From a bacterium (GTDB lineage: Bacteria; UBA8248), in assembly GCA_965261085.1 (NCBI GenBank), contig OZ253442.1:3136001-3200000 (forward strand): 64,000 bases of DNA, written 5' to 3'. Positions 5,138 through 64,000 of this stretch are shown in pieces. Both the position numbers and the translations under genes were made by a program. Numbering within the stretch: the first letter of the stretch is position 1; each line of letters opens with the position of its first letter. Below the pieces are notes generated by a model. That model worked only from the letters and a program-made list of their open reading frames with translations. It was not told the origin of the DNA and searched no databases.

Positions 5138-5223
5138 TGGTGCCCGGGGCCGGACTCGAACCGGCACGGCCTCTCGGCCAAGGGATTTTAAGTCCCTAGT
5201 GTCTACCATTCCACCACCCGGGC
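5138..5223 (-). tRNA. tRNA-Leu (anticodon TAA)
   Basis: GCCCGGGTGGTGGAATGGTAGACAC-TAGGGACTTAAAATCCCT-long variable arm-GGTTCGAGTCC-CCCGGGCACCA; 86 nt with encoded CCA. Confidence 0.97.
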
Positions 5224-49767: not shown

Positions 49768-50616
49768 CTACTTCACCGCTCCGGCCGTGAGGGCGCGGAT
49801 GAGATAGCGCTGCATGAAAAAGCCCACGAGCAGGGCAGGCAGCATGATCAGCGTCGCCAGGGTGGACATGTCCTGCCAGAAGACCTGCATCTCGCCCATG
49901 GTCTCCGCCAGCCGGACGGGGATGGTCCGCGCGTGCACGTTCGTCAGCATGAACGCGAACATGAACTCGTTCCAGGCCAGCAGGAAGACGAAGATGGAGG
50001 TCGCGGCGATACCCGAGGACGCGAGGGGAAAGGTCACCCGCGCCAGGGTGCGCAGCGCGCCGCAGCCGTCCAGGGCGGCGGCTTCTTCGAGTTCTTTCGG
50101 AATGCCGTCAAAAAACGCCTTCATCAGCCAGGTGGCGAAGGGGATGTTGAGGGCGGTGTAGATGAGGATCAGGATGAACCGCGTATCGAGTATCTCGAGG
50201 TAGCGGAACAGCAGATAGAGCGGGACCACCGCGGTGACGGGCGGCAGGAGGCGCGTGGCCAGCATGAAGAATAGCAGGTAGTTCGACGCCCGGAAGCGGT
50301 AGCGCGAGAACGCGTAGGCCGCCAGGGAGGAGACCAGCAGGGTGATAAAGGTCGTGACCACCGCGATCAAGGTGCTGTTCCAGATGAACCGGAGGGCGGA
50401 TTCGTTTCCGACCCCGAGGAACTTCCAGTATGAGGAGAAATCCGGGATCACGAAGACCTGGGGCGGAATGCTGAAGATGGCGGTCTCGTTCTTCACCGAG
50501 GTGAGCATGATCCAGACGATCGGAAACAGGCTGAACGCGAGGAGGACCATCATCGCCCCGCGCGCCGCCGGGAAGGAGGGGATCCCCGGCCCGATCTGTT
50601 GTTCGCCCCGCGCCAT
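49768..50616 (-). CDS. Carbohydrate ABC permease (MalG-like)
   Basis: IPKELEEAAALDG EAA loop; AWNEF motif. Confidence 0.92.
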   Translation of the reverse strand: MARGEQQIGPGIPSFPAARGAMMVLLAFSLFPIVWIMLTSVKNETAIFSIPPQVFVIPDFSSYWKFLGVGNESALRFIWNSTLIAVVTTFITLLVSSLAAYAFSRYRFRASNYLLFFMLATRLLPPVTAVVPLYLLFRYLEILDTRFILILIYTALNIPFATWLMKAFFDGIPKELEEAAALDGCGALRTLARVTFPLASSGIAATSIFVFLLAWNEFMFAFMLTNVHARTIPVRLAETMGEMQVFWQDMSTLATLIMLPALLVGFFMQRYLIRALTAGAVK

Positions 50617-50619
50617 CGC

Positions 50620-51549
50620 CTAGCCGTCCCTGTCCTGAATGAGCCGCAGGTAGGCGAACGCGATCCCCGCGCCGAGCACGAGGAGGACGACCGAGGTGGC
50701 CGCCGCGTTGCCCACGTCGAAATAGCGAAAATAAGTGCGCTGAATGAGCAGGCCGTAGGGCATGGTGGACGTCCCGGGGCCTCCCTCGGTGAGAATGTAG
50801 GGAATGTCGAACACCCGCAGCTTGAAAATGGTCTGAAACAGCAGCGCCACCACCAGCGGGGGAAGTATGAGCGGAAATGTGATCCGCCGGAACACCTGTA
50901 TGCGGTTCGCGCCGTCCACGTGGGCGGCCTCGAATACATCGTTGGGCAGGGCGGTAATGCCCGCCAGGAGGATCATGGTGACGAAGGGCGTCGAGCGCCA
51001 GACCTCGCATATCACGATGGCCCAGAAGGCGGGCCCGGTCTCGGCGAGCCAGTTCACCTTGGCGATCCCCACGAGGGTGATGAGGAAGTTCACGATGCCG
51101 ATATCGCGGTCCCACATGAGCCGCCAGCCGAGACCCACCGCGATGGGAGCGACCATATAGGGGGTGAGGAGAAAAGAAGTCATGAGCCGCCGGCCGCGCA
51201 CCAGGCCGTAGAGCAGAAGAGCGCTCGCCACCCCCAGGATGAACTCCAGAGCGATGGTGGCCACGGTGAAGCCCAGGCTGAAGCGGGTCACCTGCCAGAA
51301 GTCGGGGTCGACCGTGAGCAGGCGGACGTAGTTCGAAAGGCCGACGAAGCTCGAGAGATGGGGCGTGGTGAGGCGCCATTTCCACATGGAGAGATAGATG
51401 TTGTAGATGGAGGGATAGACCAGTATTCCGCCGAGGATGACGAAGGCGGGCGCCATGAGCAGATAAGGCGCCATCGCCTGCTTTCGCGCGGGGGTGAGCC
51501 ACGCCCGGCCTCTCCTCCGCGCCGTTTCCTGAACGGCTCCTGTATTCAC
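50620..51549 (-). CDS. Carbohydrate ABC permease (MalF-like)
   Basis: FVGLSNY, WRSTPF, EAAHVDGA and GGPG motifs. Confidence 0.92.
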   Translation of the reverse strand: MNTGAVQETARRRGRAWLTPARKQAMAPYLLMAPAFVILGGILVYPSIYNIYLSMWKWRLTTPHLSSFVGLSNYVRLLTVDPDFWQVTRFSLGFTVATIALEFILGVASALLLYGLVRGRRLMTSFLLTPYMVAPIAVGLGWRLMWDRDIGIVNFLITLVGIAKVNWLAETGPAFWAIVICEVWRSTPFVTMILLAGITALPNDVFEAAHVDGANRIQVFRRITFPLILPPLVVALLFQTIFKLRVFDIPYILTEGGPGTSTMPYGLLIQRTYFRYFDVGNAAATSVVLLVLGAGIAFAYLRLIQDRDG

Positions 51550-51605
51550 GACCCTCTCCGTCCCTCCGCCTGCGGCCGCTTCCTGCGGATGAAGAACCAG
51601 GCCCT

Positions 51606-51639
51606 CCCCCGGGAGGATGAATCGACCTCCTCCCGGGGG
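51606..51639. other. Intercistronic 12-bp stem-loop after the binding-protein gene
   Basis: CCCCCGGGAGGA-N10-TCCTCCCGGGGG; typical position for an mRNA-stabilising hairpin. Confidence 0.5.
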
Positions 51640-51675
51640 GTGCGCCTCCGCGTCCGTCTTCCGGCCACGGGCGTT

Positions 51676-52947
51676 TTACTTCAGAACCGCACTGATTTGC
51701 TTGCAGGCGTCCTGCATGGCCTGCTTGGCGCTCTTCTTCTTCTGCAGGAAGTTGATGACTTCCTGCGAGGTGGCGTCGCTGATCTCCGACGCGCGTGGAT
51801 GCTGGGCGGCGCCGCTTCCCCTGCTGAGGGCGGTCAGCCACGCCTTCGCCACCGGAAACCTCTTTAGATAGTCCGCGTTGGTGTAGACCGAACTGCGGAT
51901 GGGGCCGTTCGCCCATTGAAGGGCGCCCCGGAGTTGGTTCTTCTTGTTGCTGAGCGCCATGATGAGCTCCCAGGCCGCCGCTTTATTTTTGCTCTTCTTA
52001 TCCATGATGAGGTACCAGCCGCCGTTCAGGGTGGCGCCGCGGTTCTTCCCGTCCATCGAGGGGACGAGGAACCAGCCCAGCTTGTCGGCCGTCTTGGACT
52101 TCTTGGGGTTGGTCATCAGGCCCCAGTAGGGGGAGAAGTACACCCCCATGGCCGCGCGGCCCTGCATCATGGCTGTGCGGTATTCGTCCCGCCCCCAGGC
52201 CAGCATGTCGGGAGGGGACCAGCCGCTCTGGAAGGGTTTACCGAAGATTTCGAGCATCTTGATCGAATCGGCGCGGTCGAGCAGGCAGGTCTTGTTGTCG
52301 GCGGAGAGCACGCCGTGGCCCGTGCTGTGGAGATAGCGCAGGAAATCCTGCTCCACGTGGACGCCGGGCTTTCCGCGTTGGACGACGCCGTAGACCTTGC
52401 CGGGCTGGTTCAGCTTCTCGGCCGCGGCGAGAAACTCGTCCCAGGTTTTGGGAATCGAGACTTTGGCCGCCGCGAAGAGGTCCTTGCGGTAGTAGACGAT
52501 TCCCGTTCCCGTCCGGTAGGGAACTCCGTAGGAGGGCCCATTAGGTTTGGGAAAGCGGGTGGTCGCCGAGAGGGCGGGGATGATGTCCCCAAAGGCGTAT
52601 TCCGCCGGAGCGCTCTTGATGTATGTGTCCAGCGGTTCGAGAAAGCCGATGGTTTCGGGGTTGACCCACGCGTCCACCCAGGACACCACGTCGAACTGCC
52701 CGCCCCCGGCCGCGAAGGAAAGCACCGCTTTGTCCTTGATCTTCCCGTAGGGGGTGGTCACCACGGTCACCTTGATGCCCATTTCCTTCTCGAGGTCGGC
52801 CACGACGCCCTTCGGCCCGCCCGCCGCCTTGAACAGGGTCGGGTGGATGAGGAGGGTGACCTTCTTGGCCGCCGCGGCGGGCAGCGCGAGCCCCGCTACG
52901 AGGGCGGCCACGGCAACAAGGCACAGCCAGCGTCTGGAACGTTTCAT
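51676..52947 (-). CDS. ABC substrate-binding protein, family 1
   Basis: Signal peptide, YYRKDLF, PKTWDEF and GGW motifs; ATG 52947 with GGAGG RBS. Confidence 0.9.
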   Translation of the reverse strand: MKRSRRWLCLVAVAALVAGLALPAAAAKKVTLLIHPTLFKAAGGPKGVVADLEKEMGIKVTVVTTPYGKIKDKAVLSFAAGGGQFDVVSWVDAWVNPETIGFLEPLDTYIKSAPAEYAFGDIIPALSATTRFPKPNGPSYGVPYRTGTGIVYYRKDLFAAAKVSIPKTWDEFLAAAEKLNQPGKVYGVVQRGKPGVHVEQDFLRYLHSTGHGVLSADNKTCLLDRADSIKMLEIFGKPFQSGWSPPDMLAWGRDEYRTAMMQGRAAMGVYFSPYWGLMTNPKKSKTADKLGWFLVPSMDGKNRGATLNGGWYLIMDKKSKNKAAAWELIMALSNKKNQLRGALQWANGPIRSSVYTNADYLKRFPVAKAWLTALSRGSGAAQHPRASEISDATSQEVINFLQKKKSAKQAMQDACKQISAVLK

Positions 52948-52999
52948 CGTTTTTCCTCCCTTTTCTGGGTAATCGGATGATGCGAATTCCAAGGAGCGG

Positions 53000-54385
53000 T
53001 CATACCACCGCTCCATCCTGGCGAAGCTTATCCCGCAGGGGCTCGACCGGCAGTTCGCGCGGGGTCGTCCTGCGCTCCACGCACATGGCCGCCGCCGTAC
53101 CCGCCGCCTGGCCGATGGTCATGATGTGGGCCTGGTTGCGCACGGAGCCGTTCGCGAAGCGGTCGCTCGAGACGGGCCGGCCCGCCACGAGGCAGTTCTC
53201 TATCTTCTGGGGGAGCATGACGCCGTAGGGAATGCCGTAGGACTCGCCGTCCCTGATGTGCTTGTGCTCGATCACGCCGGAGGGCTGGTGGACGTCCAGG
53301 CAATAGGCCCCCTGGCCGATGTCGCGCGGCCCCTTGCGCGCCTCGACGCAATCCTCGGTGGTGAGGGTCTCCTCACCCACGATGCGGCGCGTCTCGCGCA
53401 CCCCGATGGCCGAGGCCGAATCCATGACGTAGCACTCCTCGAAGCCGGGCGCGTATTTGCGGTAGAAATCGCGCACCTTGAATATCTGCTCGCGGCCCTC
53501 GATGGCGACCTGGTTCAGATCGTCGTTGTCGATCCCGCTGTAGCCCAGCATGCTCGTCGAGTTGATGGTGACCACGCCGGGAATGTTGGTGATGGAGAAC
53601 ACCACCCGCTGTCTGTTCGGGTGAAACTCCCCGCGCGACTGGGCGAGCTTGACCGACTCGTAATAGCCGGTGACGAGGGGGTAGTCCTTATGGGTGCGAA
53701 GCCCTGCGGCGATTTCCTCGCGGCTCTTCCCGATATAGGGGTCCTCTCCGAGCATGAAATTACGCGGGTTGGCCTTGACGTGCTGGATATGCCGGTCCAG
53801 GTCCACGTTCCCCATGCGGGAGAAGAGGCTGATGGACATCATCTGGCCCTCTTCGTTCCCGAGGTGGAAGGGCGCGCCCGCCTGCGCGGCGATGTCCGCG
53901 TCCCCGCTCGCGTCGATGACGATTTGCGCGCGGATATCACTCTCCCCGCTCTTGTTCACGATGCGCGCGCCGGCCACCCTGTCGCCATCCATGACGGGTC
54001 CGATGGTGTAGGTGTTCAGCACCAGGTCCACCCCTGCGTCCAGGCAGAGCTTCTGGTTCACGAGCTTGAGCACTTCGCCGTCCTGGGGCGTTACGGAGTA
54101 GGAGTTGCCATAAGCGTTGTGGAGGTGGCCCTCCGGAAAGGCGCCGCCCAGCCGGATGAGCTCGTCCACGATCTCCTGGGGGATGCCGTTGCAGATTTGC
54201 TCCCCCTTCATGTTGTGGAAGGTGAGGAAGTTGCCGAGAAGGCCCGCTGTCGCGTTGCCTCCCAGGAAGGCGTAGCGATCCGTGAGGACGGTGCGCGCTC
54301 CATGGCGCGCCGCGGCGATCGCGGCGCACACACCGGCCATGCCTGCTCCCACGACGAGGACGTCGACGTTGCTCCTATCGGCCAT
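53000..54385 (-). CDS. FAD-dependent oxidoreductase (FAD_oxidored family)
   Basis: DVLVVGAGMAG, LGGNAT.G, IDASGDAD, GVRETRRI.G, VAGRPVS and GQAAG motifs; ATG 54385. Confidence 0.9.
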   Translation of the reverse strand: MADRSNVDVLVVGAGMAGVCAAIAAARHGARTVLTDRYAFLGGNATAGLLGNFLTFHNMKGEQICNGIPQEIVDELIRLGGAFPEGHLHNAYGNSYSVTPQDGEVLKLVNQKLCLDAGVDLVLNTYTIGPVMDGDRVAGARIVNKSGESDIRAQIVIDASGDADIAAQAGAPFHLGNEEGQMMSISLFSRMGNVDLDRHIQHVKANPRNFMLGEDPYIGKSREEIAAGLRTHKDYPLVTGYYESVKLAQSRGEFHPNRQRVVFSITNIPGVVTINSTSMLGYSGIDNDDLNQVAIEGREQIFKVRDFYRKYAPGFEECYVMDSASAIGVRETRRIVGEETLTTEDCVEARKGPRDIGQGAYCLDVHQPSGVIEHKHIRDGESYGIPYGVMLPQKIENCLVAGRPVSSDRFANGSVRNQAHIMTIGQAAGTAAAMCVERRTTPRELPVEPLRDKLRQDGAVV

Positions 54386-54470
54386 CGGTGTCTCCTTTTC
54401 TCTCCGAGTAAACCTCCGCCGGGAGGCGTTGTCAGTCTTTCGCGCGGGGTCTCCCCCCGCCGTATCCCGC

Positions 54471-55505
54471 CTAGTCCCGTATCGGCTTCGTGACCGCCCG
54501 GGTCTCGCCGTAGGTGGGGAAGAAAAGCGTGTGGCTCCCTGGCCCCCCCGCCACAGCGAGGAGAATGTTTTCCGGCCCATCCACCACCGGAACGGCCTCG
54601 GGTCCCGAGTCCGCAAAAAGCTGCGGACGCCTGCCCCGCACGCGCTCGGCGATCTCGGGTGAAAAACTCGAGAGCGGCACCCACGCTTGTTCGAAGAGCG
54701 CGCGCTGCACGTCCTCGCGGCCCATGCCGCCCGAGGCGAGGAGACCTAGGTGCTGGGGGCTGATGACGAGGAGCACCTCGCCGCCGCCCTGGGCGTTGTT
54801 CGAGCCGGGGTAGGCCATCGTGCCGGCTATCATGCGGAGCACGCTTTCTGCGCTGCCGCTCGCGTAATCGTTCACGTTCACCGGGGCGTCCGCACCCACC
54901 ACCGTCACCGCGCTTTGTTCCGCGCGAAAGCCCCGCGTCGTATGGAGCGGCTCCCAGCCGCAGGCCGCCTCGGTGAAACACGCGGAGAACTTACCCCCGT
55001 GGCCGAAAGTGGCCATGTCGGTCTCGCCGGGCACCGCCATCCCCAGCCGCACGGCGGCCAGGCGGACGGCGCGGCCGATGGTGGCGTTCGCCCTAAAGCC
55101 CGGCCCCAGGCATCCGCTCCCCGAATGCATCCCGAGCCGCTCGGCAATCGGCCCGTGGACGATCACCAAAGGGGAGGCGAGTTCGGTAGTCGCCTGGACG
55201 GCCAGGAAATTGAACTCAGGTTCCATAACGGCTTCGAGCGCCGCCAGAACCACCGGGAAGTACGCCGGCTTGCACCCCGCGATAACCGCGCAGAGGGCCG
55301 CATCTCCAACCGTCACCTCTTCCATGCCGGGCGCCATGATCCCCAGAACGTGGCCGGAACCCTCCTGCACGGCGGCGAGCATGGCGTCGACCGCTCTGCG
55401 CGTGGGGGGGATAAGGGGAAGTCCGTCGCCCGGCCCTGCCTCCATCGCGGCTTCGAGGGCGGCTTCCGCACCTGGCGGCAGTTCACTCAGCAGCGCCTCG
55501 GGCAT
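54471..55505 (-). CDS. Uncharacterised protein, paralog of the selenoprotein C-terminal domain
   Basis: DGLPLIPPT, AGCKP, GPGFRANATIGRA, WEPLH..RGF and AGGPG.H motifs. Confidence 0.8.
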   Translation of the reverse strand: MPEALLSELPPGAEAALEAAMEAGPGDGLPLIPPTRRAVDAMLAAVQEGSGHVLGIMAPGMEEVTVGDAALCAVIAGCKPAYFPVVLAALEAVMEPEFNFLAVQATTELASPLVIVHGPIAERLGMHSGSGCLGPGFRANATIGRAVRLAAVRLGMAVPGETDMATFGHGGKFSACFTEAACGWEPLHTTRGFRAEQSAVTVVGADAPVNVNDYASGSAESVLRMIAGTMAYPGSNNAQGGGEVLLVISPQHLGLLASGGMGREDVQRALFEQAWVPLSSFSPEIAERVRGRRPQLFADSGPEAVPVVDGPENILLAVAGGPGSHTLFFPTYGETRAVTKPIRD

Positions 55506-55508
55506 GGT

Positions 55509-57116
55509 CTAGTCGATCTTCCGCGTGATGGATCGGTGGTTCAGCGCGCCCGGAGCAAGGAGGGAGTTCGGCCCCGCGCCGCCGTGCACCAAGATGGTGA
55601 TGTCGTCCTTGTCCTCGACGAAGGGCATCGTCGCGCCCTCCACCGTGTTCACTCCGTAGAGCATCTGCTTCCAGTCGCTCCAGCGCTCCCGTGATTCGGG
55701 GGGATAGGCCTGGACCGGAACCCGGTAGACCTCATAGAGGAAATCGCGCACGAGCTTCTTGTCGAACCCGGCCTCGGCGACCTTGTTCGCATGGGTGGGG
55801 CCGAAGATGAGCATGATCTCGCAGCGGCCGAACTGCGGCCGGGTGCCCGAGCAGGCGGCGACGGTCCCGAAGGTGCCCAGGATGCCTTGCGCGGTGAGCG
55901 CGCTGTGGTCGTCCACCATGTGGAGCGGTTCGGCGGTGAACACCGTCACCACGCTGTCCGTCTCGGAAAAACCCTTCTCCACGTGGAGCGGTTCCCAGGG
56001 GCTCTGCTCGACGTTCTCGGTGATGGCGTCGAAATACTTGGCGAAATGACCCTGGCATGTCGCGCCCCGGCTTTCCAGGTCGCCGATGCAGTTGAACATG
56101 ATGAGCTTGACCGCGCGGCCGATGGAGGCGTTCACCCCCCAGCCCTGCGCGCTCAAATCGCGCCCGTCGCTCATCCCGATCTCCCGGGCGATGGGGCCGC
56201 TCACCACGACGATGGGAAACAGGGTATGCGCCGTGGTGATGACGTGGTTGACGTGGTACTCCTCGGCCGCCATGGCCTGCACCGCCGTCACGAGGATGGG
56301 CATGGCTCCAGGCTTACAGCCCGCCATAATGGCGTTGGCCGCGATGCGCTCGACGGTGATGTCCGCGAGCCTCGGCATGAGGCGGGTGATGACCTCATCC
56401 CCCTTGCGGCCCGAGGCCGCCACGAACCTCTCCACCATTTCCAGGGTGGGGGGGATGATGGGCAGTCCGTCCGTCGCCCCCAGATCCAAGAGCGTTTGGT
56501 TAGCGCCGGCGGGGTCTCCGTCGATCGTGAGGACCCGCTCGATGGGGTCCTCCTCGGTCTCGGCGGCTCCTCCGTTCGCGGTGTTCATCCACTCGGCGGC
56601 CACCGAATCCACGCCGTTTTGCGCGATGCGCATCAGGGCGTCTCCGCCCTGGTGGGCCACGGAGTCATCCACGAGAAGTAGGCGGAGGTGGGGGGATTTG
56701 TAGGCGCGGGCGAAGCTGCGCGCCGCCGTCTCGAACCCGTTGCCCACCACCACGACGGTGGGGACGCCGCGTTTTTCCAGCTCGGCCGAGTCGTGGACAC
56801 TCCACGACGTGCAGCCCCCTCAGACCCCGAAGCCGGTCACCGCCACGTCGCAGTTCGAGGCGATCTCGTCCAGCGTTTCCTGCCCGGCGCCCTGGGCGGC
56901 CCAGCCCTTCTTGCGCACCAAGAGCTTCGCGTCGTGGCGCTGCGCGAAGGCTTCGCCGACGAAGTTCAGAAAATCACCCGCGTGGGGCATGCTGTTGTCG
57001 AGGAGGGCGATGCGGAGCCCGTCCAGGCCCGTCACCGTAGCGTCTGCGCGGGGGCCGTCATCCTGGGCCACGGCGGCGACGGGATTGATGATTTCGATTC
57101 GACTGTTTGCATCCAT
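55509..57116 (-). CDS. UGSC-type selenoprotein (Sec99, U-G-G-C) fused to a DGLP..PPT domain; 535 aa via TGA readthrough
   Basis: ATG 57116 with GGAGGGAG RBS; in-frame TGA at 56820-56822 continues GGCTSWSVHDSAELEKRGVPTVVV in frame into ORF 55509..56753; SECIS-like hairpin follows. Confidence 0.88.
56790..56808 (-). promoter_or_regulatory. Bacterial SECIS-like hairpin
   Basis: GUCGUGGA-GUG-UCCACGAC, a perfect 8-bp stem with a G-containing loop, starts 11 nt 3' of the UGA. Confidence 0.75.
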
Positions 57117-57191
57117 ACCCGAACTCCCTCCGAATATGCGGGGAACACGCACTCCGCTCCCTAGGGGACAGCCAGTGGTCTTCAATTTTTT

Positions 57192-57232
57192 TCAGATAAG
57201 GCACTTTATAGCAAAATCTGATCGCATGTCAA
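57192..57232 (-). promoter_or_regulatory. Sigma70 promoter of the selenoprotein operon with an overlapping inverted repeat
   Basis: Minus strand TTGACA-16 nt-TATAAA with extended TG; TCAGAT-N18-ATCTGA brackets the -10 box. Confidence 0.55.
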
Positions 57233-57368: not shown

Positions 57369-58499
57369 TTAAAGCAAACTGACCACCCGCTCTAGTTCTT
57401 CTTCGGTATTATAAAAATGCGGCGCAAAACGAAGAGCACTGTCGCGAGCGCTGGCGATGATTCTCTTCTCACGCAGAAGCTCCACCACCTTCCTGGGATT
57501 GGACGACTCGATGCTCACAATGGCGGCGCGCTCCTCCCAGGAACGAGGAGTCAGAATCTTCTCCCCCCGCCTCTCCAGTAACTCCATCAAATAAGTCGTC
57601 AACTGCCGTACACGCTCCTCGATGTGCTCAAGTCCCACCCCTGCAAGGAACTCGGCCGAGCGGCCAAGGACCCACAGACCCAGATAATTGGGATTTCCGA
57701 TCTCGAACCGGTGGGCATCCGGGGCCAGTCCGACTTCCATCCGGTCGAGCACTTCGCGAACCATGCTGGCGCGGGCATAGAAAGGAGGCTTCATCTCGGG
57801 AATCAAGTCTTCGCGGCAATAGAGAAAACCCGTGCCAGGCAGACCGAGCAATCCCTTGTGCCCGCCACAGACCACGATATCCGCCCCGAGGGCCGGCAAT
57901 GATGCCGAGAGGATCCCGATTCCCTGAATCGCATCCGTCATCAAAAGAATCCCGCGCTCGCGGCAGGCCGCGCTCAGGGCAGGCAGGTCTATTCGGCAAC
58001 CGGTCCCGAAAATCACGTAGGAAACCGCTACGACGCGCGTTCTCTCATCCATCAGTTCGATGAACGCCTCCGGCGGGAAGCGGCCGTCCCGATTTCGCAC
58101 CCATCGCAATTCGACGCCTCTTTCCTCGAGGCGCTTCCAGGCATACACCTGGTTCGGGTGGTCCATTTCCGTCTGGACGACGTTATCTCCCGCCTTGAGA
58201 TCCAGGGCCTGTACAGCGATGTTCAAACCCTCTGAAGTATTTTTGATGAACGCGATTGTCCGGGGCGAGACGCCCAGGAGCGAAGCCAGCGAAGAACGAA
58301 TCTCTTCCACACGGAGTTTGGAAAAAGCCCCACGAACGCCGAGTTCATTCAACTCTCGCAGGAATTCCGGAATGGCGTCCTGAGCGCACTGGGGAAGGGG
58401 CGCTTTGTTGGCGAGGTCCAGATAGGTCCAATGCTGCGTGACCGGAAATTCATTCCGGAGGGCCGTGAAATCCGGAGCAATCGCCTGTTTTTCGATCAT
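57369..58499 (-). CDS. Class V PLP-dependent enzyme (cysteine desulfurase-like fold, catalytic Cys absent)
   Basis: YLD.A, NTSEGL, DAIQ, GHKGLLG (PLP Lys), RFEIG and HFYN motifs; ATG 58499. Confidence 0.87.
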   Translation of the reverse strand: MIEKQAIAPDFTALRNEFPVTQHWTYLDLANKAPLPQCAQDAIPEFLRELNELGVRGAFSKLRVEEIRSSLASLLGVSPRTIAFIKNTSEGLNIAVQALDLKAGDNVVQTEMDHPNQVYAWKRLEERGVELRWVRNRDGRFPPEAFIELMDERTRVVAVSYVIFGTGCRIDLPALSAACRERGILLMTDAIQGIGILSASLPALGADIVVCGGHKGLLGLPGTGFLYCREDLIPEMKPPFYARASMVREVLDRMEVGLAPDAHRFEIGNPNYLGLWVLGRSAEFLAGVGLEHIEERVRQLTTYLMELLERRGEKILTPRSWEERAAIVSIESSNPRKVVELLREKRIIASARDSALRFAPHFYNTEEELERVVSLL

Positions 58500-58631
58500 C
58501 AGTCTTTCTCCTGTCACAAAAGTCCGGAAACCCATTTTCGCCTGCTCATTATGGATCGCGCTACGATGGGTAATTACGTTCTCAAGAATTCAGGCAACAT
58601 GCAAACACATCATCAGGCGCCGGGCGCCCGC

Positions 58632-59933
58632 TTACGCCACGCCGCACCACTCGAGTATCAAGTGGAGCAACCCGTCGACAGAAAGCTGCAACTCGTCGAT
58701 ATAGGTAAATTCGTCGGGGATGTGACCCCGCGGGCAATTTCCTCCAAACATGATGGTGGGCGTGTCGCCGTAGAGAATCGGGAATCGCATATCCGTTGTC
58801 CCGTTCAGGGCCTGAAGCTGGGAAGGACGGCCCGTGACCCGTTCGGCTACGGACAAAGCCGTTCGGACAAACGGGTGCTCAGAATCGGTGAGGCAAGATT
58901 GCGCGCGTCTCTCCGTCCATTCCAAACGGGGCGGATGCTCACGAAGCCACGAGTCGGCCTCGGCGGCTCGGGTGAGGTGGTCTTCCACCAGTTTTTTCAC
59001 CTCCTCGATGCTTTCTTTAGGCGCCACCCCCGCCACGCCCTCCAGTACGCATTCGGCCGGGAGTTGCCCGATGGACACACCAGCACGCACCATGGTCACC
59101 ACAAGGTTCACCGTGCGAGGTTCGAGTCCGCTTATCTCAAAACGTTTTTCCACCAGGGGTTCGCGAACCGTGGCTCCTCTATGCGCGTCCAGCTCTCTGA
59201 GCGCGGCGTGGATATTCTCGGCTTTCTCGATGGCGTTCACGAAAAGATGCGCCGAACCTTTGTGACCGGCCTGGCCCGGCACGGTGATCCGGAAACTCAC
59301 ATCGCCGCCCGAACCGATATCCACGCCGCCGAATCCTCCCGGTTTCATATGGGTGTAGACGGCTCCATCCGCCTTAAGGCCGCGAAAAACGCACGCCAGC
59401 ATCCCCCCTCCGCCTCCTTCTTCTTCTTCGACGGTGGAGAGGAGAGTCAGATCCCCCTTGAGACGCACTCCGGCGCCTTGTAAGGCCCGGGCGCACGCAA
59501 TCATGACGGCCAACCCCGACTTGGCGTCTCCTGAACCCCGTCCATAGAGGCGATTGTCCTCCACCTCGCCCCCGAATGGATCTCGCGTCCAGGCAGTTCG
59601 CGGCCCAGGGGGAACCGTGTCGGCGTGACAAAACAGGAGGAGCGACCTGCCGCCTCCCGCTCCCCGCATGCGGCCGAGCACGTTCGGCCGGCCGGCATAC
59701 CCCTTCTCCAGCGAGAAGCGGGGGGCCGAAAACGCCGGATGCTCTCTCAACTCTTCCAGGTTCGCCTCGAACGCCTCCATCTCGAGACCGGTATCGGCAA
59801 ATCGTTTTTGCACCAGGGCCTGAACCGCCCCCTCCTCTCCCGTGGGGCTGGGAATTCGAACAAGTTCCTGAAGAAGAGCAACCACGTCGATTTGCCGAGC
59901 TTGGGAAATCACCTTTTCGAGAGCATCGTTCAT
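58632..59933 (-). CDS. M20 family ArgE/DapE-like deacylase
   Basis: HADTVP, LYGRGSGDAKSG, VEEE, TTD and H.PDE motifs; ATG 59933 with GGAGG RBS. Confidence 0.9.
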   Translation of the reverse strand: MNDALEKVISQARQIDVVALLQELVRIPSPTGEEGAVQALVQKRFADTGLEMEAFEANLEELREHPAFSAPRFSLEKGYAGRPNVLGRMRGAGGGRSLLLFCHADTVPPGPRTAWTRDPFGGEVEDNRLYGRGSGDAKSGLAVMIACARALQGAGVRLKGDLTLLSTVEEEEGGGGGMLACVFRGLKADGAVYTHMKPGGFGGVDIGSGGDVSFRITVPGQAGHKGSAHLFVNAIEKAENIHAALRELDAHRGATVREPLVEKRFEISGLEPRTVNLVVTMVRAGVSIGQLPAECVLEGVAGVAPKESIEEVKKLVEDHLTRAAEADSWLREHPPRLEWTERRAQSCLTDSEHPFVRTALSVAERVTGRPSQLQALNGTTDMRFPILYGDTPTIMFGGNCPRGHIPDEFTYIDELQLSVDGLLHLILEWCGVA

Positions 59934-60057
59934 TAAAAATCCTCCGGGAAAATCTTCTGCTTTTTTTGGATGGTACGTATTGTGCTTCCGTTTCGCCATC
60001 AAGCGTGCGAACCCAAGATCACCGGGCCTAATTTAGTGGAAAAGAAAGGCCCATTGA

Positions 60058-61083
60058 CTAAATGAGTGAACCGGCCGTGACGCCGACGCTCCCCGCAAAA
60101 TGACAGGCCACCGTGTGGCCGGGTTGGAACTCTCTCAGCACTGGCTTCTCTTCCACGCAACGCTGCTCGCTGTACGGACAACGGGTATGGAAACGGCATC
60201 CGGTCGGCGGGTCAAGGGCGGAAGGAACCTCTCCCTTGAGGATGATGCGCCGCCGCTGCCTGGCCTTCACCGGATCCGCCACCGGAGTGGCCGATAGCAG
60301 CGCCTGCGTATAAGGGTGTAATGGGGTGGTGAAGAGAGACTCAACCGCCGCAAGCTCCACGATCTCACCGAGGTACATGACCCCCACCCTGTCACAGACC
60401 GAGCGCACAACCCCCAGGTCGTGCGTGATGAAGAGGTAGGAGAGATCATGTTGCGCCTGAAGAGCTTTCATGAGGTTCAGGATCTGGGCGCGGATGGAGA
60501 TGTCGAGTGAGGAGACAGGCTCATCGGCGATCACCAGCCGGGGCTTCAGCGTGAGAGCCCGCGCGATGCCGATACGCTGACGCTGGCCGCCGCTGAGCTG
60601 GTGAGGATAGCGGTCCATGAAGATTTCGCCCGGCTCCATGCCCACCTGGTTCAGGAGATCAACGACGGTCTCATCAATCTCCCCTTTATTCACCACGTCA
60701 TGATTGAGGAAAGGCTGGCGCAGGATTGCCCGCACGGTGCGCCTGGGATTCAAGGATTCGAAGGGATCCTGAAAAATCATCTGCACTTCTCGATTGTACT
60801 GCTTGAGAGCGGGTCCTCTCAATTCCGCGACCTCTTGTTCGTCGAAGAGGATGCTTCCATCGTCGGGCTTTTCCAATTTCGCCAGCAAGCGGGCCGTCGT
60901 CGTTTTCCCGCAGCCGCTTTCACCCACCAGGGCGAACGATTCACCGGCTTTGACCGAGAAACTGATGTCGTCCACGGCGTGCACGTGGCGAGGAGGCCGG
61001 AACCATCCCCCTTCGACGGGAAAATGTTTCGTCAGCCTGCGCACTTGCAAGAGTGAATGATTCATGGAGGCGGGATCACTCAT
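60058..61083 (-). CDS. Peptide ABC ATPase (OppF)
   Basis: [16 protein letters not shown] and GCRFHTRC motifs. Confidence 0.93.
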   Translation of the reverse strand: MSDPASMNHSLLQVRRLTKHFPVEGGWFRPPRHVHAVDDISFSVKAGESFALVGESGCGKTTTARLLAKLEKPDDGSILFDEQEVAELRGPALKQYNREVQMIFQDPFESLNPRRTVRAILRQPFLNHDVVNKGEIDETVVDLLNQVGMEPGEIFMDRYPHQLSGGQRQRIGIARALTLKPRLVIADEPVSSLDISIRAQILNLMKALQAQHDLSYLFITHDLGVVRSVCDRVGVMYLGEIVELAAVESLFTTPLHPYTQALLSATPVADPVKARQRRRIILKGEVPSALDPPTGCRFHTRCPYSEQRCVEEKPVLREFQPGHTVACHFAGSVGVTAGSLI

Positions 61084-62059
61084 AAAGCCAGCAAGCCACC
61101 ATCCGCCCCTTCCCCAAACTCAAGGAAGGCGGCGACTCTTCGCGGCAGATGTCTTTAACGTGGGGACAGCGCGGATGGAAGCGGCAACCCGACGGCATGT
61201 CTGTCGGGTTTGGCACCTGCCCTTCAATGGTTTCAAAAACCTCAACGCGCTTGTCGGGGCTGAGCGTCGAACGCAAGAGACCCACCGTATAGGGATGTTT
61301 CGGTTCGGCGAACAGGGTAAAGGTGTCGGCGTGCTCTACAATCTGGCCCGCATACATGATGTAGATTCGGTCGCAATGCTCCGCCACCAGGCCGATATCG
61401 TGGGTGATCAGGAACAGGGCGTTCTGGAGTTCCTCGCGAAGTTGGGCGAGCAGGTCCATGATTTGCGCCTGAATGGTTACATCCAGCGCCGTGGTGGGCT
61501 CATCGGCGATGAGCAGGGACGGGCGGCACGAAATGGCCATGGCGATGAGCACCCGTTGGCGCATGCCGCCGCTCAGCTGATGGGGGTAGCTATCGTAGAC
61601 CCTTTGGGGGGAAGGGATGCCGACATGATCGAATGCATCGAGCACCTGTGAGCGAGCTTCGCGTTTCGTGACCTCCTGGTGCTCCAACACCACCTCCGCC
61701 ACTTGGGCCCCGGCCCGCATGACGGGGTTCAAATAAGTCATGGGATCCTGAAAGACCATGGCGACCTCCTTTCCGCGGAGGTTGCGCATACTCGCCGCAT
61801 CCAGCGTCAGAAGATCCACGTCGTTCAACAGCACTTCGCCTGAGAGGATGCGGGCCACGACCGGCTGGAGCCGGATGATGCTGAGAGCCGTCATGGATTT
61901 CCCCGACCCCGACTCTCCAACCAGCGCAACCGCCTCCTTGCGGTTCACTTCCAGCGACACGCCGTCAACGGCTTTGATCACGCCGGCAGGGACATCGAGG
62001 TAGGTCCTCAGATCGGAGACCCGCAGGAGGCCATTTCGATTTTCCGCCTTCTTGTTCAT
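61076..62059 (-). CDS. Peptide ABC ATPase (OppD)
   Basis: [16 protein letters not shown] and DEPTTALD motifs; ATG 62059 overlaps the upstream stop (ATGA). Confidence 0.93.
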
Positions 62060-62955
62060 AGTCCGGTCCGATGAATTTCGGAAGAGCGAGGATTGAGCAC
62101 GTCGTTTAAGCCGTCTCCCAGCAGATTGAGCGTCAAGACCGAAAGAAAGATGCCCAAACCAGGATACACGGCCATCCACCACGCTTGTCGCAGAAAAGGC
62201 TGAGCTTCGTAAAGCATCCGCCCCCAGGTCACCAGGCTGGGGTCTCCCAGACCCAGATAGCTCAAACCCGCTTCCAGCAGCATCGCCTGCGCCGTTAAAA
62301 GAGAGGCATTTACGACTACAACCCCCATGGCGTTCGGCAGAATCTCACGAAAGATAATGGTCGAGCGCCTCGTCCCGATCACATGCGCGGCATCCACGAA
62401 TTGCCGTGTGCGCAGGGTCAGAAATTCCGAGCGAACGATGCGGGCCGTCACCGGCCACGTTAAAATGGAGATGGCGAAGATGATGATCCAGATGCTCGCC
62501 CCGAAGAAGGCGACGATGATCAGGGCAAGGAAGAAGCGCGGAATCACCATGAAAGTCTCGGTGAGCCTCATCAGAATGTCGTCGACCCACCCGCCCAGGT
62601 AACCGGAGATTGTGCCCACGAGAAGGCCTACGACCGTCGTGGCAAAGGCCGCCGAGAAACCGACGAAGATCGAGACCCGCCCGCCCCACAGGATTCGGCT
62701 TAAGACGTCGCGGCCGAGATTGTCGACGCCCATGAGGTTGCGGTAACTATGCCCGCCCAGCCGCGAACCCGAACCCAGGGCGTAAGGATCATAGGGCGCC
62801 AGGACGGGCGCGAATAAAACCAGTAAAACCAGCAACAACAACACGGACGCTGCGATGGGCACCGCGCGATTCTGGCTGAATGCTCCCCAGATGGCCCTCC
62901 ACTGCGGCCCTCTTTTCGAGCTTCGGTGAGCGATTGGCTTTGTTGTTGTCGTCAC
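62056..62955 (-). CDS. Peptide ABC permease (OppC)
   Basis: MGVDNLGRDV, FVDAA and EAGLSYLGLG motifs. Confidence 0.92.
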   Translation of the reverse strand: MTTTTKPIAHRSSKRGPQWRAIWGAFSQNRAVPIAASVLLLLVLLVLFAPVLAPYDPYALGSGSRLGGHSYRNLMGVDNLGRDVLSRILWGGRVSIFVGFSAAFATTVVGLLVGTISGYLGGWVDDILMRLTETFMVIPRFFLALIIVAFFGASIWIIIFAISILTWPVTARIVRSEFLTLRTRQFVDAAHVIGTRRSTIIFREILPNAMGVVVVNASLLTAQAMLLEAGLSYLGLGDPSLVTWGRMLYEAQPFLRQAWWMAVYPGLGIFLSVLTLNLLGDGLNDVLNPRSSEIHRTGL

Positions 62956-62967
62956 GGTTCCAGATTC

Positions 62968-63951
62968 CTATCCATAAGCCACACGCGGGTCAATCATGGC
63001 GTAGAGAATGTCCGTGATGAGGTTTGCAAGCACTATCATCATCGAGACGACGAGGAAGATTCCCAGAATCATCGGATAGTCCCGCGCGGTAATCGATTCG
63101 AAAATCAGCCTGCCCATGCCCGGCCACCCGAACACGGTCTCGGTGAACACCGAGCCCGCCATGACGTATGCGAAATTGATGCCGATCACGGTAACCACCG
63201 GGAGCAGCGCATTGCGCAGGGCATGCCGGTAGAGCACGCGGCGTTCGTTCAACCCCTTGGATTTCGCGGTCAGGATGAAGTCCTGCGCAAGTGTTTCCTG
63301 CATCTTGCCCCGTGTGATTCGGAATACGAGGGTCATATGATAAGTGGCGTAGGTAATGGCGGGAAGGATCAAGTGCTTCAAGACGTCAAGAACCGCAGGC
63401 CAGCCGGGCTCCACCCCGCGCATCGAATACATGCCCTGGCTCGGCAGCCAGTCCAGGTAAAGAGCGAAGAAAAGTATGAGAAGTTGACCCAGCCAGAAAA
63501 TGGGCATCGAATAGCCGGCGAGCGAAGCCAGGGTCGCCAGGTGGTCACCCACCGAATAGGAGTAACGCGATGCAATAACGCCCAGTATGACTCCCATGAC
63601 GCTGGCTATGGAGAAGGCCGTCGCCATGAGGAGCATGGTGGCCGGCAGGCGATCCAGAATAACGCCGAGTACGGGGGAGTTGTGCCAGGTGGAATAGCCC
63701 AAATCCAGATGAAGAAGCTTCCACAAATAAATTCCCATCTGGACGTGAAGAGGCTTGTCCAGGCCGAACTCAATGCGCAGTTCCTCGTATGCCTCCGGGG
63801 TGGCTTCGGTGACGCTGGCCAGGTAAATGGCCGGATCTCCCGGAGCGAGATGGATGATGGTGAAGTTGATGATGACGACCCAGAAGACAAGAGGGACAGC
63901 TTGAAGGATACGCCTTACGGTGTAACGCAGAAGCGGATGTCCACCTGCCAT
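62968..63951 (-). CDS. Peptide ABC permease (OppB)
   Basis: APGDP, DLGYS, TAKSKGL, HALRNA and DPRV motifs. Confidence 0.92.
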   Translation of the reverse strand: MAGGHPLLRYTVRRILQAVPLVFWVVIINFTIIHLAPGDPAIYLASVTEATPEAYEELRIEFGLDKPLHVQMGIYLWKLLHLDLGYSTWHNSPVLGVILDRLPATMLLMATAFSIASVMGVILGVIASRYSYSVGDHLATLASLAGYSMPIFWLGQLLILFFALYLDWLPSQGMYSMRGVEPGWPAVLDVLKHLILPAITYATYHMTLVFRITRGKMQETLAQDFILTAKSKGLNERRVLYRHALRNALLPVVTVIGINFAYVMAGSVFTETVFGWPGMGRLIFESITARDYPMILGIFLVVSMMIVLANLITDILYAMIDPRVAYG

Positions 63952-64000
63952 GGATTGCCCCTCAGTGAGACGTCAAGAGACCTATAGGGCCCCGCCCGGA

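Follow-up and report, generated by a model that had tools for sequence, protein, structure and literature searches.

A UGA-interrupted gene encoding a UGSC selenoprotein domain fused to a conserved-cysteine partner domain, a candidate selenol-dependent reductase

UGSC is an abundant aquatic selenoprotein to which the available parts of the papers describing it assign no function (PMC2398784, PMC1976440, PMC9312934, PMC13188914), and reviews, so far as their available parts go, place it among the commonest selenoproteins of aquatic metagenomes. A 64,000-nucleotide stretch of DNA, here called the window (positions 3,136,001 to 3,200,000 of contig OZ253442.1 in the bacterial assembly GCA_965261085.1, lineage UBA8248), contains two open reading frames (ORFs) that an earlier note, made from the sequence alone, had read as a hidden selenoprotein of this type. 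Is the locus one gene in which UGA specifies selenocysteine (Sec), and what would its product do? Judging from its sequence and from that of its relatives, window 55509..57116 on the (-) strand is almost certainly a single Sec-decoded fusion gene, in which a UGSC domain is joined to a second domain with one conserved cysteine, hereafter the partner domain.

All window features given below are on the (-) strand unless stated, and G000 denotes the window's own genome. Under translation table 11 the locus splits into ORFs 56820..57185 (-) and 55509..56753 (-), which lie where the earlier note had put them and share one frame through the TGA. From ATG 57116 (-) this frame runs for 535 codons to a TAG at 55509-55511, and its sole internal stop is TGA 56822-56820, codon 99, in the context ...VAVTGFGV-U-GGCTSWSVHDSAELEKRGVPTVVVVG. 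The earlier note had also seen a good ribosome-binding site only at ATG 57116. Such a signal does precede that codon, and none like it precedes the start of the second ORF, a GTG inside a VVVVG run. The features of the gene are as follows.

57203..57232, (-): sigma-70-like promoter TTGACA-18 nt-TAAAGT, 10/12 consensus matches, in the 252-nt gap upstream of the fusion gene
57124..57131, (-): Shine-Dalgarno-like GGAGGGAG, 7 nt 5' of ATG 57116, read from the DNA
55509..57116, (-): coding sequence of the UGSC-partner fusion selenoprotein, 535 residues and TAG; orthologues align from residue 1-2 to 535 with one TGA
56589..57095, (-): UGSC domain, residues 8-176, from Pfam PF24696 and a structure model
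56820..56822, (-): selenocysteine TGA (U99) in the motif U-G-G-C; same codon in orthologue loci, Cys in homologues
56811..56813, (-): Cys102 codon, likely the resolving Cys of UxxC, from the DNA and the homologue alignment
56790..56808, (-): hairpin like a selenocysteine insertion sequence (SECIS), arms GUCGUGGA / UCCACGAC, loop GUG, 8 bp, starting 11 nt after the UGA
55512..56504, (-): partner domain, residues ~205-535, a conserved family lacking a Pfam or NCBIfam model
56316..56318, (-): codon of Cys267, the one Cys of the partner domain that is near-invariant, from the family alignment

The promoter is a consensus match only, and two sigma-70-like sites were found in the region where 1.2 were expected.

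Conservation of the TGA was examined in 61 genomes, the window's own and 60 relatives. Twenty full-length matches were obtained in 19 genomes (G000's own included), with 59-100% identity over residues 1-535, and each contained exactly one in-frame TGA. In the orthologue loci read as DNA the TGA occupied the identical codon (19/19). Library homologues having a residue at position 99 carried Cys in 35/45 cases and another residue in 10/45; 66 further aligned rows start after or end before this position and were left out of the count. With the query counted, 36 rows possess Cys-99, in the form of CxxC (28), CxxS (7) or a doubtful CxxV (1). One Pfam model, PF24696, covers residues 8-176 and therefore runs across the TGA. 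Because this model crosses the TGA and one TGA is conserved in all 20 matches, the Sec reading goes beyond chance.

UGA-99 would be decoded with the help of the hairpin that lies 11 nt downstream. In 12 orthologues the eight pairs of this hairpin were unchanged in 10/12, and in the other 2/12 a U-A pair was replaced on both sides by C-G, a compensated change that costs two amino acid changes. In each of the eight UGSC paralogues of the genome the RNA can likewise fold into a hairpin here, and paired exchanges of G-C/A-U and GG-CC/GC-GC are seen among them. Its single-sequence fold z-score of -1.19 is unexceptional alone, and no family matching the hairpin was found in Rfam. The genome encodes the Sec machinery: a tRNA-Sec (75.9 bits; ARAGORN call SeC(tca)) together with selA (579 bits), selB (384 bits) and selD (336 bits), all above cut-offs. 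RNA-library contigs from three studies span the TGA unchanged, although DNA carry-over in these libraries is possible. Two of the checks that the earlier note had proposed, Cys or Sec at residue 99 of homologues and selA, selB, selC and selD in the genome, gave the results it expected.

Two observations concern the machinery itself. The selD gene (G000:C1 3459-4421) has a single TGA in frame, and in G000 selenophosphate synthetase is therefore probably a selenoprotein itself. A tRNA-like element at window 5142-5223 (-) scored 44.2 bits on the tRNA-Sec model, under the cut-off of 47, and is probably an ordinary long-arm tRNA.

If TGA-99 were a true stop, the locus would consist of two genes or a pseudogene producing a 98-residue peptide and a 414-residue protein. 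Public gene calls treat the closest homologues in this way, since 27/27 closest database proteins (P0003-P0029) begin downstream of the TGA, and the ORFs are separate under table 11. Yet one Pfam domain runs across the TGA, frame and TGA are kept down to 59% identity, homologues have Cys at the position, the hairpin shows compensatory change and the genome has the Sec machinery. In addition, no ribosome-binding site precedes the second ORF, whose product would begin in the middle of a modelled alpha/beta domain. A true stop is therefore very improbable, and the 27 database proteins are miscalled. With a single conserved TGA, a domain spanning it and the machinery in the genome, the earlier note's joining of two ORFs into one Sec gene of about 535 residues is borne out.

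What is the domain that carries the Sec? The PF24696 match scored 129.8 bits, well above the cut-off of 25, with residues 8-176 placed on profile positions 1-170/172, in agreement with the UGSC-type assignment made earlier. The motif here is U-G-G-C, and the seven paralogues in the genome have UGSC (six) or UGSS (one). At E<=10 the only other Pfam hits of the N-terminal domain were sub-threshold matches to CGGC and YAcAr. An AlphaFold2 model of the domain (predicted local distance difference test, pLDDT, 89.6) has five parallel beta-alpha units and places U99 between strand 91-97 and helix 100-115. The structural neighbours of the model are flavodoxin, WrbA, CheY-like and B12-binding-like domains (Foldseek E ~2e-4, template modelling (TM) score 0.45-0.5; VIA-align Z 10-12), and no thioredoxin-fold entry was among the best 50 matches listed by either structure search. 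On this model, the UGSC domain is a flavodoxin-like, five-strand alpha/beta fold, a fold that is very common. A search of Protein Data Bank (PDB) sequences with the family profile gave a best E of 0.1. Coproporphyrinogen oxidase, the best match of the N-terminal domain to PDB sequences (E 0.05), was judged to be chance.

The earlier note had pointed to a likeness between this Sec region and that of the glycine and proline reductase subunits GrdB and PrdB. Five genes of G000 belong to PF07355, the family of selenoprotein B (GrdB/GrdF/GrdH, PrdB), and each has an in-frame TGA just past the Pfam match. All five lie outside the window.

G000:C1 2149655-2150692: PF07355 gene L047
G000:C1 1206087-1207121: PF07355 gene L048
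G000:C1 813395-813787: PF07355 gene L049
G000:C1 320133-320534: PF07355 gene L050
G000:C1 505350-505658: PF07355 gene L051

Two of them are full-length and adjoin GrdE-like PF09338 genes; the other three are short PrdB-like forms for which no PF09338 neighbour was found. Classical GrdB-type genes of relatives also carry an in-frame TGA. A Sec region of the GrdB/PrdB type reads, for example, ...LLTSS-U-GTCTRCGSAVAKEMDREGIPSAL, and the spacing U, C+3, T+4, E+13, acidic +15, G+18, I or V+19 and P+20 is common to these regions and the UGSC fusion. Taken together, the genome's own PF07355 genes and those of relatives have E at +13/+15, P or A at +20 and T at +21, again with the spacing of the fusion. 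A UGSC profile of 51 sequences was compared by hhalign with a GrdB/PrdB Sec-region profile of 34 sequences, which were picked by motif pattern, with Sec written as Cys in both alignments. The two profiles matched with a probability of 96.4% and an E of 1.2e-9 over 72 columns, and the Sec columns were aligned. As controls, the reversed target gave an E of 0.35 and the partner domain an E of 0.43. When full-length GrdB was the target, UGSC matched columns 330-408/438 with a probability of 94%. With identical spacing, a high profile probability and controls that gave no comparable match, the likeness proposed by the earlier note is judged to be real, and the Sec modules are probably homologous.

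The wider reading of the locus as a GrdB/PrdB system fared less well. No PF07355 match was found in the fusion protein at E<=10. The idea that the partner domain is a PrdA/GrdE-like pyruvoyl subunit was dropped (probability 0.1% in comparison with GrdE), and the N-terminal part of GrdB gave a probability of only 1.2%. No PF09338 gene is present at the fusion locus, and the genome's two lie beside GrdB-like genes. For these reasons the fusion was not assigned to GrdB/PrdB, and what survives of that reading is the Sec-region homology. Selenoprotein B and UGSC share a strand-U-x-x-C-helix-strand module with the same spacing, and in both a Sec/Cys redox pair sits at a strand-to-helix junction, whereas the UGSC fusion lacks the N-terminal region of GrdB and the pairing with a pyruvoyl proprotein (PF09338). 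Residues ~330-378 of the two GrdE-like proteins (L081/L082) showed a weak likeness to the UGSC profile (hhalign 24%, E 8e-4); this segment has a similar layout, strand-GGG-helix-strand, and contains neither Sec nor Cys.

The second half of the protein, residues ~205-535, matched no family in Pfam or NCBIfam, even at E<=10. With the whole protein as query, 4383 representative clusters were found at E<=0.001, and the partner domain was present in 270/270 of the proteins compared (query included). Its near-invariant features are DGLPxxPPT, NAxMAGC, R334, E367, PWxPLH and GGxG. Cys267 is a Cys in 267/274 aligned rows and is the sole Cys among positions conserved at >=85%. In the model of the domain (pLDDT 91.4) it lies in the loop preceding helix 70-83 (domain numbering). 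A search of the ESM Atlas returned unnamed clusters only, of which one bears the automatic label 'thiol-disulfide oxidoreductase family'. In other proteins a different redox module is fused to the partner domain, AhpC/Redoxin domains in five cases (four CxxC, one CxxT) and a thioredoxin-reductase-like Pyr_redox_2 domain in one, and proteins of ~710 residues with two tandem partner domains exist. The joining of three kinds of redox module to a domain with one conserved Cys would be the signature of an enzyme that re-reduces its Cys at each turnover.

UGSC and the partner domain also occur together outside the fusion. In G000 there are eight UGSC genes, each of which has TGA at its Sec site, and the partner domain occurs 15 times. 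The other UGSC/partner loci, all outside the window, are as follows.

G000:C1 654385-661525: UGSC/partner locus
G000:C1 840449-841913: UGSC/partner locus
G000:C1 1260510-1262067: UGSC/partner locus
G000:C1 1515375-1516963: UGSC/partner locus
G000:C1 2112052-2113747: UGSC/partner locus
G000:C1 3201842-3203415: UGSC/partner locus
G000:C1 4159272-4160862: UGSC/partner locus

A separate partner gene directly follows four of these UGSC genes and directly precedes two, and the remaining one is near four tandem partner copies. The window's gene is the sole in-frame UGSC-partner fusion in G000; independent Sec-containing in-frame fusions are found in other genera, and 32 full-length fusions were counted among the library proteins. 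A second Sec at Cys267 was considered for homologues with two TGA codons and rejected, as the second TGA of L042 is the stop of a separate UGSC gene. The paralogues have as neighbours genes for CoA-transferase III, enoyl-CoA hydratase, acyl-CoA dehydrogenases and an HpcH-type lyase, and further luciferase-like monooxygenases, M24, S15 and M17 peptidases, and importers of the ATP-binding cassette (ABC) and tripartite ATP-independent periplasmic (TRAP) types.

The fusion gene is followed on the same strand by a compact set of genes.

54471..55505, (-): stand-alone partner-domain paralogue, 344 aa, 32% identity (E 6e-49), its ATG 3 nt after the fusion stop
53000..54470, (-): flavin adenine dinucleotide (FAD)-dependent oxidoreductase (PF12831), start codon uncertain
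49768..53016, (-): CUT1-type ABC uptake genes (SBP_bac_1 51676-53016; permeases 50620-51549 and 49768-50616)

The stand-alone paralogue follows the fusion in 5/7 orthologue loci compared. Because of this arrangement and the existence of the tandem-domain proteins, the partner domain may work in pairs. Five orthologue loci (L037, L038, L040, L045 and L046) keep the order fusion, paralogue, FAD oxidoreductase, which in all but L038 continues with the binding protein and permeases. In L038 (G033:C152, 3641-6492) the PF12831 FAD oxidoreductase gene occurs twice in tandem. GC content at third codon positions (GC3) is 0.80-0.92 in the UGSC operon (49768-57185) versus 0.66-0.75 in the upstream genes at 57369-62182. 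The upstream aminotransferase-V gene was considered as part of the conserved unit and ruled out, since it is missing from the orthologue loci compared and its GC3 differs. Together with the upstream M20 and Dpp-type ABC genes it belongs to a second UGSC/partner module that starts just past the window end. This second module (window 58632-63951 and beyond) includes an M20 deacylase, Dpp/Opp-type ABC genes and a 594-aa SBP_bac_5 gene, and just past position 64000 the gene order is creatinase/M24-like peptidase, separate UGSC(Sec) and partner-domain gene.

How might the two domains of the fusion work together? We favor, with moderate confidence in the explanation as a whole, a Sec fusion in which Cys267, U99 and C102 form the relay of a reductase. 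The product joins two modules usually encoded by separate neighbouring genes. In this thiol/selenol-dependent reductase, the partner domain would handle the substrate and carry out catalysis via Cys267, and turnover would leave this residue oxidised or covalently loaded. U99 and C102 would then resolve Cys267, forming a selenenylsulfide for a thioredoxin-type system to reduce again. A thiol/selenol-driven reductase of this kind is suggested by the proteins in which a CxxC peroxiredoxin-like or a thioredoxin-reductase-like domain is joined to the partner domain. Since the operon also encodes an ABC importer, an FAD oxidoreductase and a second partner paralogue, a small organic molecule taken up from outside is the probable substrate.

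Several results weigh against this relay reductase and its supporting comparisons, beginning with the motif-based choice of the GrdB/PrdB sequences described above. Among 46 full-length fusions, 10 lack Cys or Sec at position 99 and have Cys267, 3 show the reverse, and joint loss of the two residues, sought as a sign of coupling, occurred in none. Because each residue can be lost while the other is kept, a relay between 99 and 267 cannot be obligatory family-wide. The chemistry of the partner domain is not anchored because no convincing solved relative was found. Its best Foldseek match was class I fumarate hydratase (E 1e-4, probability 0.9), with a TM score of 0.25-0.28 and a root-mean-square deviation of ~17 Å, and VIA-align against 48,161 chains reached a maximum Z of 6.6 over residues ~195-327 only, and of 6.0 in a second look. 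Class I (Fe-S) fumarate hydratase uses three conserved Cys as ligands for a 4Fe-4S cluster. The three conserved Cys of class I (Fe-S) fumarate hydratase/serine dehydratase are not in the partner domain, where Cys267 is the sole conserved Cys. The genome contexts of the paralogues are heterogeneous, with varied catabolic sets, a variety that also fits substrate-specific modules. Lastly, the NCBIfam equivalog NF041046 scored 97.5 bits, under its cut-off of 125. Since this equivalog model is built for stand-alone proteins, the locus was taken as a UGSC-domain fusion and not as an equivalog; a sub-cut-off score might be expected of a fused, UGGC-type member.

Two other accounts of the protein were weighed. 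In GrdB and PrdB, Sec is the catalytic nucleophile that attacks the substrate carbon. By analogy with this Stickland-type chemistry, and in line with the selenol attack inferred by the earlier note, U99 would attack a carbon of the substrate bound or activated by the partner domain, cleaving a C-N or C-S bond reductively, and C102 would resolve the selenoether to Se-S; the paralogous UGSC/partner pairs would then be substrate-specific analogues of 'protein B'. The probable homology and identical motif spacing of UGSC and the GrdB/PrdB Sec module point this way, as do the use of five PF07355 selenoproteins by G000 and the placement of its 8 UGSC and 15 partner copies beside different uptake and catabolic genes. 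We nevertheless consider carbon attack possible but unlikely, because the partner domain is unrelated to both pyruvoyl GrdE/PrdA and the N-terminal part of GrdB, and because 10/46 fusions do without Cys or Sec at position 99. Elsewhere, moreover, ordinary CxxC thioredoxin-fold domains replace UGSC, which argues for a generic disulfide relay. From their domain composition, the peroxiredoxin-like and thioredoxin-reductase-like fusions fit a plain redox relay at least as well as selenol attack on carbon.

Alternatively, the partner domain could act in the catabolism of organic acids or amino acids as an isomerase, hydro-lyase or similar enzyme that depends on its Cys, with UGSC keeping this Cys reduced, sensing redox state or serving a structural role. 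The fusions that have lost residue 99 and keep Cys267 are consistent with such an enzyme, and so are the paralogues near CoA-transferase III, enoyl-CoA hydratase, acyl-CoA dehydrogenase and HpcH-type lyase genes. Fold hints also lean in this direction, with class I fumarate hydratase joined by CyuA and MmgE/PrpD-type proteins (Z 4.4-4.9), although they are weak and lie under the reliability level of the tools. Repeated, independent linkage to three kinds of redox module (UGSC, CxxC peroxiredoxin-like and thioredoxin-reductase-like) is hard to reconcile with it, as is the retention of Sec, a costly residue, in all eight paralogues. A non-reductase role of the partner domain is accordingly quite improbable, and the relay reductase remains the explanation that we prefer.

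The UGSC family and this kind of fusion are already in print, as the available parts of PMC2398784 make clear. That 2008 PLoS Genet paper describes, in those parts, a 'UGSC/Unknown_1 fusion' in which UGSC is joined to a conserved-Cys domain also found alone in aquatic organisms. Unknown_1 is probably the partner domain described here, in the same architecture. Unlike the present analysis, the available account of the fusion in PMC2398784 gives no partner function, GrdB/PrdB link or operon context. The N-terminal domain shares with the UGSC family (PF24696; NF041046; the 'UGSC-containing protein' of Zhang and Gladyshev) the U-G-x-C motif, the alternation of Sec and Cys and the SECIS-like hairpin. 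Stand-alone UGSC proteins have ~170-200 residues and the UGSC motif, whereas here the domain is part of a 535-residue fusion and has UGGC. The fold is called 'likely Trx-like' in the literature, so far as the available parts go, whereas the model obtained here is a five-strand flavodoxin-like one. Among the papers listed by our literature search, no title or abstract tied UGSC to GrdB/PrdB or to a flavodoxin-like fold.

A similar logic of architecture is seen in the methionine sulfoxide reductase (Msr). Msr-thioredoxin fusions are thiol-dependent reductases fused to their own thioredoxin-fold reductant. By analogy, a catalytic domain with a single Cys would here be provided with its own dithiol or selenol-thiol donor, either in one chain, as in the window's gene, or from a neighbouring gene. 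No relationship in sequence or fold was found between the UGSC fusion and Msr-thioredoxin-type enzymes, which were not themselves examined, and the parallel is one of architecture only.

The window's gene is a natural single-chain union of UGSC and its usual partner, and its compact operon also encodes a flavoenzyme and a binding-protein-dependent importer. If the structure model and the profile comparison hold, the record on UGSC may be corrected in two respects: its fold would be flavodoxin-like and not thioredoxin-like, and it would be a remote homologue of the glycine/proline reductase Sec module. For annotation it matters that the Sec codon cuts short all 27 closest entries and that the fusion does not reach the NCBIfam UGSC cut-off. 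A bolder and rather doubtful possibility is that UGSC and its partner constitute a second, cofactor-poor branch of Stickland-type selenoreductases, a sibling of GrdB/PrdB in which the pyruvoyl subunit has been swapped for an unrelated, Cys-bearing substrate domain. If this were true, aerobic aquatic and symbiotic bacteria would be able to cleave C-N, C-S or C-O bonds of imported small molecules reductively, and the 8 UGSC and 15 partner copies in one genome would amount to a battery of substrate-specific reductases.

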